From: Chloroflexota bacterium
GTDB taxonomy: Bacteria > Chloroflexota > Dormibacteria > CF-121
DNA length: 58,560 nt
Assembly (NCBI GenBank): GCA_005881215.1
Contig: VBDZ01000003.1
Location: 1 to 58,560, forward strand
Reading direction: 5' to 3'
How positions within the stretch are numbered: position 1 is the stretch's first letter; every line of letters starts with the position of its first letter. The notes beneath the pieces were generated by a model that had not been told where the DNA came from, did not search any database, and worked only from the letters and a program-made list of their open reading frames with translations. A program made the position numbers and the translations under genes. This document shows, one piece after another, positions 47,172-50,477 of this stretch.

Positions 47172-48134
47172 TCAGGCGCCGCGCACACCGGCGATCGGGT
47201 TTCCCGCGGCGTCGACCGAGCGCTGCGCAGCCTGGTCGGCGCGCGGCGAGCCGTCGCCCGGATAGACGACCACCGGCGTGCCGAGCGACGCCCAGGCGAA
47301 CAGCGTCCCAACGGCGGCCAGCGGCAGGTGGATGCAACCGTGGCTGGCGAATGGGCCATTCTGGGACCCCGGGCCTAGCGTCGAGTCCGGCTGCCAGCTG
47401 GCGTCGTGCAGGCCTTCGCCATTGTTGGTGAACCAGAGCACCATCTGCACCGGCGTATCGGGATACCATTCGGGCGCTCCCCGCGGCCAGGGCGAGTGCA
47501 TGGTCCACGGGGCGTCCTTGCTCACCACCCGCATCGCGCCAATGTCCGTCGGCAGCGACGGCCGGCCTGTGGTGACGGGCGTATCGGCGACCGCCCGCCC
47601 GTTGTCGTAGGCGATGAGCCGCTGCGCGGCGATCGAGACGATGATCAGCCGGCTGGGCCCGTTGTGCAGCAGGCCGTTGTGGATCTCGGTGCCGTAGTGC
47701 TCGACGCCGGCAACCCCAAGGGCGAGCCGGGCCTGGTCGGTGGATGCCAGCCACGCGCCGTATCGCTCGAGCTGTGCATCGAGCCGTCCGACCCAGCGGA
47801 GCCTGAGGAAGTCCGCCACCGTCGCGTCATTGCGCCCGACTACCAGCGCCATCCGGCCCCGCTCGCCCAATGCTCGCGGGTTGCCGGCGTAGTGCATCGC
47901 CAGCCGGCTGGCCTCCGGTTGGAGCGCGGCCGTATCGCTGGGCGGTCCGGCTGCCGGCCGGCCCTGGCCAGCGCCCGCCGTCGATGGGCTGCCCAGTGCG
48001 ATGCTGCCGGCACCGGCGGTGCTCAAGACGAGCCCGGCGACGATGACGGCGGCCACCACCGCCGATCGAGGCATCCAGACGGGGCGCCAATGTCGCCCGA
48101 TCCAGTTCCAGACCCCAGTTGCGCTAGCAGACAT
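47172..48134 (-). CDS. L,D-transpeptidase (YkuD domain)
   Basis: IIVSIAAQRL, VTTG, GLHDASW, SHGCIHL, LGTPVVV; TATAAT upstream. Confidence 0.9.
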   Translation of the reverse strand: MSASATGVWNWIGRHWRPVWMPRSAVVAAVIVAGLVLSTAGAGSIALGSPSTAGAGQGRPAAGPPSDTAALQPEASRLAMHYAGNPRALGERGRMALVVGRNDATVADFLRLRWVGRLDAQLERYGAWLASTDQARLALGVAGVEHYGTEIHNGLLHNGPSRLIIVSIAAQRLIAYDNGRAVADTPVTTGRPSLPTDIGAMRVVSKDAPWTMHSPWPRGAPEWYPDTPVQMVLWFTNNGEGLHDASWQPDSTLGPGSQNGPFASHGCIHLPLAAVGTLFAWASLGTPVVVYPGDGSPRADQAAQRSVDAAGNPIAGVRGA

Positions 48135-48195
48135 AGTGTTAGTGCAATTATAATGTTTATCGGCCGATCCGAGCGGCGGCCCGTACCATGGCCGG

Positions 48196-49671
48196 ATGGC
48201 CGTTCCGTCCTATGCCGGGACCTCGCGCGCCCCCGACTTTCCGCAGGGGCTGGACTGGCTCAACGTCGCCCGGCCGTTGCGCCTGGCCGATCTCCGCGGC
48301 CGGCTGGGGATCATCGATTTCTGGACGTTCTGCTGAATCAATTGCATGCATACCTTTCCGCAGTTGCGGAAGATCGAGCGGAAATACGGCGACCGGTTGA
48401 TCGTCGTCGGGGTGCATTCGCCCAAGTTCCCCGCCGAGCGGGAAACGGCCAATCTGCGGGAGGCGGTGTTGCGTTATCGAATCGAGCACCCGGTGGTGAA
48501 CGACCGTGACTTCGCGGTCTGGCAGCGCTTTGGCGGTCGTGCCTGGCCGACCCTGATCTTCATCGACCCGGACGGTCGGGTCATCGGCAAGCACGAAGGC
48601 GAGCTTCCCTTCGAAAAATTCGATCAGCTGGTGGGCGGCATGCTCGAGGAGTTCGAGGCGCGTGGCGTCCTGAACCCGGCGGCCTCGCCGATTGCGCTCG
48701 AAGCGATCCGCGAGCCCGCCCACACCCTGAGCTTTCCAGGCAAGGTGCTGGCCGCTGATGACGCGCTCTACATCGCCGACACCAACCACCACCGGGTCGT
48801 GGTCGCCGCTCTGGATGGATCGATCCAGCGGGCGTTCGGCGGCGGGGAGCCGGCCTTGATCGACGGCCCGGCATCGCAGGCCGCATTTCAGCAGCCGCAG
48901 GGATTGGCGCGATCCGGCGCATCCCTGTACGTCGCCGACACCGAAAATCACGCGATCCGCTCGATCGACCTCGACACCGGCATGGTCACCACGCTGGCCG
49001 GCACCGGCGAGCAGGCGCGAGTGGCCAATGCCGGAGGGCCCGGCCGCTCGACGTCGCTGAGCTCTCCATGGGACCTGGCGTTGTCCGGACCCCTCCTCTA
49101 TATCGCCATGGCCGGCACCCACCAGATCTGGTCCCTCGATCTTGAATCAGGCACGGTCGCGCCGTTCGCCGGGACCGGCCGCGAAGGCCTACTCGACGGC
49201 GCGCTCGATCGCGCGTGGTTTGCCCAGTCGAGCGGCCTGACGCTGGCCGATGGTCACCTGTACGTCGCGGACGCCGAGGTCAGCGCGGTGCGCGACATCG
49301 ACCTTCGCGCCAAACAGGTGAGCACCCTGGTCGGCGAAGACCTCTTCGTTTTTGGTGACCGGGACGGGGAGGGTGACGCGGTGCGCCTGCAGCACCCGCT
49401 TGGCATCTCCGCCCGGGACGGAACCATCCTTATTGCCGACAGCTACAACAACAAGATCAAACGACTGGAACCTGGGCGCCGCGCCGTGCAGACCTGGCTC
49501 GGTAGCGGGGCCGCCGGACGGGCCGACGGGCCCGGCCCATCCGCGTCCTTTCGAGAGCCGGGCGGCGTGTGCGCCGGTCGGGCGGGACTCTACATCGCCG
49601 ATACCAACAACCACCGCATTGCACTGGCGGACTGGGAGCGCGGAGAGGTCCGAACCCTGATCGGCGACTGA
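48196..49671 (+). CDS. Thioredoxin-like plus NHL-repeat protein (NHLRC2/SOQ1-like) with in-frame TGA; probable selenoprotein (C-U-I-N-C)
   Basis: ATG 48196 (TACCAT 6 nt upstream); DFWTFC-TGA(48334-36)-INCMH..VGVHSPKF..E; NHL repeats IADTNHHR, VADTENH, IADSYNNK. Confidence 0.9.
48356..48371 (+). promoter_or_regulatory. Candidate bacterial SECIS hairpin
   Basis: TTCCGC-AGTT-GCGGAA; loop starts 25 nt after the UGA and has G at its second position. Confidence 0.7.
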
Positions 49672-49677
49672 CCTCGG

Positions 49678-50367
49678 TCAGAAGTGGTCGCGGAGCTGCC
49701 GGAACGACTGCAGGACGAGTAGTCGTCCGTCGTGCACCGGAACCTCCGCCTGCTCCAGCCGCCAGGTGTGTGCATGCGGAATGAAGACCGCGTGCAGGCC
49801 CGCCTCCAGCGCGGGATTGATGTCGGACCTGGGTGAGTTGCCGATCATCCAGGCCTGCTGCGGATCGACGTGGTTCGACCGGATCAGCTCGCGATAGCCG
49901 GCCAGATCCTTCTCCCGGGTGACCACCACCCGCTCGAACTGATCCTTAAGCCCGGACCGCTGCACCTTGAGCTGCTGCTCCTCGTGCTCACCCTTGGTGA
50001 ACAAAAGCAGACGGTGACGTGGCTCGAGGTAGGCCAGCGTCTCGGCCACGTCGGGTAGGAGCTCGAGCTCGACGTCGACGATCCGTCGGCCGAGGTGCAT
50101 GACATGGTCGAGGTCGTCCTGGTGCAGTTCCCGTTCGGCCAGGCGCTCGTAGGTTTCGCGGAGATTGCGGGCGAACGCGGCGGACCCATAGCCGTGCACC
50201 CGGCTGTTGAGCCGCTCGATCTCATCCAGGGTGGCCCGCACCTGCGCCCGGCTGAGCGCCGAGTGGTCGAGATAGTCGATGAAATCCTCGATCGCCTGCT
50301 CGAAGTGGACGTTGTTTTCCCAGAGGGTGTCGTCGCCGTCGATGATCAAGACCTGCCGCGCGGCCAT
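49678..50367 (-). CDS. HAD-superfamily hydrolase (5'-nucleotidase-like)
   Basis: IIDGDDTLWEN, FTKG, MIGNSPRSDI.P; TATGCT 9 nt before ATG. Confidence 0.88.
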   Translation of the reverse strand: MAARQVLIIDGDDTLWENNVHFEQAIEDFIDYLDHSALSRAQVRATLDEIERLNSRVHGYGSAAFARNLRETYERLAERELHQDDLDHVMHLGRRIVDVELELLPDVAETLAYLEPRHRLLLFTKGEHEEQQLKVQRSGLKDQFERVVVTREKDLAGYRELIRSNHVDPQQAWMIGNSPRSDINPALEAGLHAVFIPHAHTWRLEQAEVPVHDGRLLVLQSFRQLRDHF

Positions 50368-50477
50368 CGCGTCTTGAGCATAGCCATCAGCGGCCGGCGC
50401 GATTGGGCGCTGGACGGCCAACCGGGACGCCAGTAGAATGGGGCCACCCTGAGGGGGCCAGGGCGGAGGTCGGGGAC

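Follow-up and report, generated by a model that had tools for sequence, protein, structure and literature searches.

We report that an in-frame UGA codon at positions 48334-48336 (+ strand) of a 58,560-nucleotide stretch of DNA from a soil bacterium (hereafter the window) very probably encodes selenocysteine (Sec, U) at the active site of a redox protein resembling NHLRC2 and SOQ1. From the sequence evidence we put the probability of this reading at about 0.93. The window is contig C76 of a metagenome-assembled genome of Candidatus Dormibacterota (2.79 Mb, 255 contigs, 88% complete). We favour the Sec reading because the UGA is conserved, an RNA hairpin downstream of it covaries, the Sec machinery is present in the genome, and homology to NHLRC2 and SOQ1 spans the UGA.

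Results

A thioredoxin-NHL gene interrupted by one UGA

The full gene occupies 48196-49671 on the + strand. Its frame opens with ATG at 48196 and runs through 46 sense codons to IIDFWTFC (GRLGIIDFWTFC), where the internal TGA follows. Downstream of the TGA the unchanged frame resumes (INCMHTFPQLRK.., INCMHTFPQLRKIERK..) and continues to a terminal TGA at 49669-49671. When the internal TGA is read as a residue, the 491 codons give a 491-residue protein containing F-C-U-I-N-C, in which residue 47, the N-terminal Cys position of a CxxC motif, would be Sec. The full gene is defined by open reading frame (ORF) translation and orthologue alignment, and the assignment of Sec47 by the latter. In the ORF list, the locus appears as a 46-codon stub and a separate ORF of 441 residues from ATG 48346 (48346-49671, + strand, beginning MHTFPQLRK), the gene-caller product that replaces the full gene. 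The ATG at 48196 is aligned in 18 of 21 orthologues. The terminator of the gene differs between orthologues (TGA, TAG or TAA), while the internal TGA is constant.

An earlier note on this DNA had described the 46-codon segment joined in frame to the downstream ORF by one TGA, a -10 box 6 nucleotides before ATG 48196, and a hairpin whose AGUU loop begins 25 nucleotides after the UGA. All three were found. The box is TACCAT at 48184-48189 (+ strand), and the hairpin, at 48355-48372, has six Watson-Crick pairs and a closing U.G pair. A box of the form TAC(C/G)AT, 6-10 nucleotides 5' of the ATG, is kept in most of the 21 orthologues, and a two-hexamer promoter scan upstream of the gene found no full -35/-10 promoter of the sigma-70 consensus. 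The closeness of the box to the ATG suggests that the predicted mRNA is leaderless or has a very short leader.

The predicted protein has two domains. The first is a thioredoxin-like domain of the TlpA/DipZ/ResA type (Thioredoxin_8 / AhpC-TSA; about residues 11-150, 48226-48645, + strand), with its cis-proline in the context AWPT, as identified by Pfam, NCBIfam, the DipZ structure 2HYX of the PDB, and alignments to SOQ1 and NHLRC2. The second is an NHL-repeat beta-propeller (about residues 177-486, 48724-49653, + strand; Pfam NHL, 1.4e-28). It can be aligned with 6G7W and 7DJM, chains that contain the propeller alone, and from these structures we infer six blades. Pfam matches are to Thioredoxin_8, AhpC-TSA and Redoxin, then to NHL repeats; AhpC-TSA (PF00578, the Pfam of the Prx-like thiol:disulfide oxidoreductase selenoproteins with UxxC, reference WP_010940744.1) scores 29.9 bits, slightly above its cut-off of 26. 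NCBIfam holds no model specific for the full protein.

Residues 11-486 match human NHLRC2 (6GC1, E = 4.4e-110) and, in Arabidopsis, the lumenal region of SOQ1 (7DJJ, E = 2.4e-114), and both alignments are continuous across the UGA, which bears out the family assignment of the earlier note. NHLRC2 is the FINCA disease protein, with structures 6GC1 and 6G7W; the SOQ1 structures are 7DJJ and 7DJK. The motif region of SOQ1 (DFWTYCCINCMH, FWTYC-C-INCMH) corresponds to DFWTFC-U-INCMH here. In SOQ1, NHLRC2 and 27 Cys-form representatives, the residue opposite U47 is the second Cys of CCINC, and Sec would therefore replace the N-terminal Cys of CxxC, the position that had been proposed for it. The protein ends at residue 491, directly past the propeller, and the match to 7DJJ stops at chain residue 504 of 667; the beta-stranded domain at the C terminus with its conserved Cys pair, a feature of NHLRC2 and SOQ1, is absent. 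Complete Sec forms have 420-526 residues after U, and most Cys forms are 620-720 residues long, with signal peptides and the C-terminal domain. Since only 10 residues precede the homology, there is no signal peptide and no transmembrane helix; a HAD domain is also absent. The Sec protein is probably cytoplasmic.

Conservation of the UGA and of its coding flanks

Sixty related genomes were searched in six frames, which yielded full-length orthologues from 19 species and two partial copies at contig ends (71-81% identity, four genera, one family). Each carries exactly one in-frame TGA, and after strand correction the TGA column is identical in 21 of 21, always in F-C-U-I-N-C. The TGA also occupies the same column in all four distant truncated representatives for which DNA was fetched (about 50-55% identity) and in 80 of 80 loci fetched from named genomes. 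The source genome is a fragmented assembly, as its contig number and completeness indicate, and such a source leaves room for a sequencing or assembly error, or for a recent nonsense mutation in a pseudogene. The earlier note had looked to relatives with only TGC or TGT as the sign of such an event. Instead, the TGA is kept across orthologues: independent assemblies of at least 119 species have the identical codon, with purifying selection on both sides. We consider a mutation or error to be of negligible probability.

The codon alignment shows conservation of the coding type, with synonymous variation and constant amino acids, both upstream and downstream of the TGA. In the 46 upstream codons, many columns hold one amino acid encoded by three or four codons; A12, T44 and G35 each use four. 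By this pattern, the segment upstream of the TGA is coding sequence. One could still suppose that the locus makes two products, a 46-residue peptide ending at the TGA and an independent NHL protein of 441 residues from ATG 48346. This matches the gene calls in databases, where the best 120 matches among 5.8 billion proteins are all 423-449 residues long, start after the TGA and are named hypothetical, YncE or NHL protein; ATG 48346 is also conserved, because Met51 is. However, both the opening strand of the thioredoxin fold and the first of the redox residues would be missing from the 441-residue form, and the 46 codons before the TGA give a residue-by-residue alignment with SOQ1 and NHLRC2 and are under protein-level selection. 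More than 100 genomes preserve the reading frame through the TGA, 48346 has no ribosome-binding site before it, and some relatives have a residue other than Met at position 51 (INCIH, INCLH, INCAH, INCHH). Two separate products are thus very improbable in our judgement.

Cys-containing homologues were sought among 1.84 billion cluster representatives. Full-length Cys forms share 43-52% identity, range from 467 to 991 residues, and have the motifs FWTY-C-C-INC, G-C-INC or S-C-INC. Several truncated representatives came from that search as well, among them the four distant ones described above. All four Cys forms checked at the DNA level have TGC in the column of U47. The alternation that the earlier note had anticipated among relatives therefore exists, TGA in Sec forms and TGC in Cys forms with CCINC, GCINC or SCINC.

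A covarying hairpin downstream of the UGA

The putative selenocysteine insertion sequence (SECIS) is the hairpin at 48355-48372 (+ strand). Its stem, UUUCCGC/GCGGAAG, has seven pairs including the closing U.G, and its apical loop, AGUU, lies at 48362-48365. The assignment rests on invariance, covariation and RNAalifold. The loop starts 25 nucleotides 3' of the UGA, and the bSECISearch consensus places it 16-37 nucleotides after the UGA, a range that includes this distance.

Codons 54-58 (TTT CCG CAG TTG CGG) are invariant in all 21 orthologues, against a gene-wide background in which 12 of 207 conserved degenerate codon columns are invariant (5.8%). We read this as selection on the RNA itself, at the site where the earlier note had placed the hairpin. 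The longest invariant nucleotide run of the gene, 16 nucleotides, covers 48355-48370; the second longest, 8 nucleotides, covers TGAATCAA.

Covariation was assessed in an alignment of 83 sequences; the scan pattern for the 80 loci fixed GTTG in the loop and left the stem columns free. The seven-pair helix is 94.2% paired over the 83 sequences, compared with 37-68% when the 3' partners are slid by one to three columns. Five of the seven pairs have changes on both sides (62 cells), and the covariation score is 0.384 versus 0.158 for shuffled alignments, none of 500 shuffles scoring as high. Such double changes turn CCGC/GCGG into CCCC/GGGG, and UUCC/GGAA into UCCC/GGGA or UGCC/GGCA. The same helix comes out of RNAalifold unaided. 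One distant Sec form has CUUCCCC-AGUU-GGGGAAG, in which C-G has taken the place of a G-C pair and R has become G in the protein; another has an unrelated stem, UUCGCUCC-GUU-GGAGCGGA, at the same site. We note that the minimum-energy fold of 67 nucleotides pairs UUUCCGC with a downstream GCGGAAA; this fold was rejected, as that GCGGAAA is not conserved in orthologues.

The four Cys forms checked at the DNA level have no hairpin at the aligned position. Over the hairpin the protein reads P-Q-L-R in Sec forms versus P-[DE]-L-[KQ] in Cys forms, and it appears from this comparison that the SECIS has imposed the P-Q-L-R residues on the Sec-form proteins. The SECIS-like character claimed for the hairpin thus holds in its fixed distance 3' of the UGA, the G-U in the apical loop and the covarying stem.

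Selenocysteine machinery and genetic code of the host

The genome contains a tRNA-Sec (58.2 bits, above the Rfam gathering score), called tRNA-SeC with anticodon TCA by ARAGORN, and selA and selB adjoin each other on contig C177. The selD gene (G000:C247:40802-41725; HGAG-U-ACKIG) also contains an in-frame TGA, within the canonical G-A-G-U-A-C-K context, and a small hairpin, GGUCC-UGA-GGACC, begins 12 nucleotides after the selD UGA; selD of this genome is itself a predicted selenoprotein gene. Selenium use by the organism, which the earlier note had implied, is supported by tRNA-Sec, selA, selB and the Sec-containing selD, and with these all the machinery genes that it had named are found. In genomes of other phyla, selA scores above the curated cut-off in 14 of 14 carriers of the gene versus 1 of 14 controls. 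Among close relatives, selA scores above the cut-off in 50 of 61 genomes with or without the gene, and co-occurrence there does not discriminate; the comparison across phyla tells more.

A reassigned genetic code was considered and rejected: among 2292 ORFs of 300 codons or more, 1178 (51%) stop at TGA, more than at any other terminator, and where this gene ends, orthologues have TGA, TAG or TAA.

The UGA might also be read by a near-cognate tRNA for Cys or Trp, the hairpin being merely a read-through or pausing element. Cys or Trp is inserted at low levels at Sec codons under selenium limitation. Moreover, the residue inserted at the UGA is assigned here from sequence, and the hairpin, a small one, has no counterpart among curated RNA families. 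Against such decoding, the position is the redox Cys of CxxC, a classic Sec site, and the placement of the hairpin and the G-U in its loop are as expected of a bacterial SECIS. The Sec machinery points the same way, with selA in every carrier genome tested and tRNA-Sec, selB and selD in this genome, and a lineage that needed Cys could use TGC, as the Cys-form homologues do. We regard near-cognate reading as very improbable.

Distribution of the Sec form

One genome per GTDB species was scanned for an exact pattern, with matches in at least 119 genomes, so that the Sec form occurs in the genomes of at least 119 species. The 80 loci fetched all encode FWT[YF][CGA]-U-INC. By record label, about 56 belong to Chloroflexota sensu lato (Dehalococcoidia, Chloroflexia, Thermomicrobia, Anaerolineales, Caldilineae, Ktedonobacteraceae), 10 to Gemmatimonadota, 3 to Actinomycetota, 3 to Rokubacteria/Methylomirabilis and 2 to Dormibacterota. 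Armatimonadota, Planctomycetaceae and Acidobacteria have one locus each, and three records have no phylum label. A quick maximum-likelihood tree places 63 of 64 Sec forms, along with five Cys forms, in a single well-supported clade and requires at least three switches between Sec and Cys. The protein of the window groups with records labelled Candidatus Dormiibacterota.

These observations lead us to a broader proposal, to which we give somewhat better than even odds: the Sec-containing orthologues of NHLRC2 and SOQ1 form a large, uncatalogued and cytoplasmic family that lacks the C-terminal domain, spans at least 119 species in seven phyla, shares one homologous SECIS, and marks the nucleophile of the CCINC motif. 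The seven phyla, counted by label, are Chloroflexota, Gemmatimonadota, Dormibacterota, Actinomycetota, Methylomirabilota/Rokubacteria, Armatimonadota and Planctomycetota.

Several related sequences were observed along with the Sec forms. One homologue inside the Sec clade (P0211) has the degenerate motif FWTC-S-S-IAC without the first redox residue, and is perhaps a derivative without redox activity. In the genus of the window's organism, several genomes keep selA and have only a C-terminal fragment of the gene (58-71% identity; G006:C15:17017-17400, G008:C34:77890-78087, G016:C108:23437-23562 and G027:C14:13610-13723); these remnants suggest ongoing gene loss within the genus. Five loci of the scan (L064, L081, L110, L112 and L121) encode short proteins with the thioredoxin-like domain only, about 107-109 residues after U, with the motif MWTFG-U-INC. 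A hairpin that covaries, such as AUUCCUU-CGUU-GAAGGAAU, lies at the offset seen in the longer Sec forms, and no NCBIfam model matches these proteins above its cut-off. At least two have lipoprotein-like signal peptides. From these features, they look like exported selenoproteins of the DipZ/ResA type, related to the thioredoxin-like domain of the gene described here.

Neighbouring genes

A convergent gene for a HAD-family hydrolase (49678-50421, - strand) ends 7 nucleotides past the selenoprotein gene. We considered whether this neighbour echoes the HAD domain of SOQ1 and dropped the idea, as tblastn found the adjacency in nine close relatives only and not in other phyla. Upstream lies a divergent gene (47172-48134, - strand) that encodes an L,D-transpeptidase-like protein with an HGCIHLP motif. 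On its own strand, a TATAAT-like box lies about 12 nucleotides before its ATG (within 48117-48160), and the transcripts of the two divergent genes may have very short leaders. An element, aTTgTAAyGTT, is kept in several orthologous loci.

Discussion

Several observations weigh against the Sec reading or against the redox role that it implies. The hairpin is short (seven pairs and a four-nucleotide loop), no Rfam family matches it above noise, and the folding energy of the single sequence after the UGA is not significant (z = -0.3 and -0.8). The conservation of the loop in the 80-locus set is partly by construction, as GTTG was fixed in the scan. The selA gene of this genome (G000:C177:3186-4931) contains a perfect in-frame tandem duplication of 420 nucleotides (140 codons) and has 582 codons versus about 442 in relatives. 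The repeat either arose in assembly or reflects a duplication of very recent origin, and in the latter case SelA, and with it Sec synthesis in this strain, might be impaired. Human NHLRC2 was inactive in the classical insulin-reduction assay, and the authors of that study doubted thiol-disulfide exchange (PMC6107167). The C-terminal domain of SOQ1 carries a second Cys pair and a reported methionine sulfoxide reductase activity (bioRxiv 10.1101/2024.11.01.621559), and the protein described here lacks that domain. With these points included, our estimate for Sec at the UGA is the one given at the outset.

If the UGA encodes Sec, decoding would follow the known bacterial mechanism. With the UGA in the A site, SelB carrying guanosine triphosphate and Sec-tRNA(Sec) would bind the hairpin at its apical part and deliver Sec, outcompeting release factor 2. 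In the protein, Sec47 would be the nucleophile, placed by the solved homologues in a cleft facing the propeller. With an oxidised substrate bound at the propeller, Sec47 may attack it, join Cys50, the resolving residue, in a selenenylsulfide, and then be reduced again. By analogy with SOQ1, the substrate would most likely be a disulfide in a protein, a sulfenic acid or methionine sulfoxide. Without the C-terminal domain, either the U-x-x-C motif acts directly on the propeller-held substrate, or a separate partner replaces the domain.

Sec normally replaces a catalytic redox Cys, and this natural variant therefore argues that the CCINC motif in NHLRC2 and in SOQ1 does real redox chemistry. If the proposal is true, the second Cys of CCINC would be the catalytic nucleophile family-wide, including in NHLRC2, whose redox activity was doubted, and the thioredoxin-NHL core would be able to work without the C-terminal domain. 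The Sec form would also offer a more reactive protein, free of that domain, in which to seek the substrate. The small covarying hairpin would be a clean example of a SECIS that constrains the protein sequence overlapping it. As database copies are cut at the UGA, a widespread selenoprotein would be missing from selenoproteome counts of soil and marine Chloroflexota, Gemmatimonadota and Dormibacterota.

Comparison with known systems

The protein resembles SOQ1 and NHLRC2 in its end-to-end alignment, in a motif at the same place, and in the order of a thioredoxin-like domain and then an NHL propeller. It differs from both in having Sec for the second Cys of CCINC and in lacking the beta-stranded domain at the C terminus, and from SOQ1 also in lacking the HAD domain and the transmembrane helix N-terminal to the thioredoxin-like domain. 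The hairpin is similar to the SECIS of the E. coli fdhF type, which is likewise an intragenic stem-loop at a fixed short distance after the UGA with a G-U in the apical loop, but it is shorter, with seven pairs and a loop of four nucleotides, and lacks the bulged U.

A likeness was also seen to the 'thiol-disulfide isomerase-like' selenoprotein of the Sargasso Sea (PMC1088965; PF13905/cd02966), which shares the UxxC motif and the Thioredoxin_8 Pfam label. Membership of that family was rejected, since its motifs are DW-U-TWC and PW-U-GAC and its sequences are unrelated around the motif. No UINC sequence occurs in the supplement of PMC1088965, nor in the accessible part of the GOS supplement. 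The catalogued selenoprotein families (PMC9312934, PMC13188914) include none with an NHL propeller or U-I-N-C, and 'NHL' is absent from both catalogues. A full-text search of the literature found nothing relevant linking NHL or NHLRC2 to selenocysteine or SECIS, and nothing on CUINC. Within the literature that could be searched, the NHL-type Sec family is probably unreported as a selenoprotein family.

Dozens of catalogued thioredoxin-fold families have Sec in place of the first Cys of CxxC together with an intragenic SECIS (PMC9312934, PMC13188914). The protein described here resembles the bacterial members of this group (Sec-thioredoxin, the Prx-like thiol:disulfide oxidoreductase and the thiol:disulfide interchange protein) in the Sec at the N-terminal position of CxxC, the hairpin 3' of the UGA, the existence of Cys-containing homologues, and the repeated switching between Sec and Cys. 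Thioredoxin-fold UxxC selenoproteins are thus a known pattern, of which the NHLRC2/SOQ1-like protein of the window is a further member.

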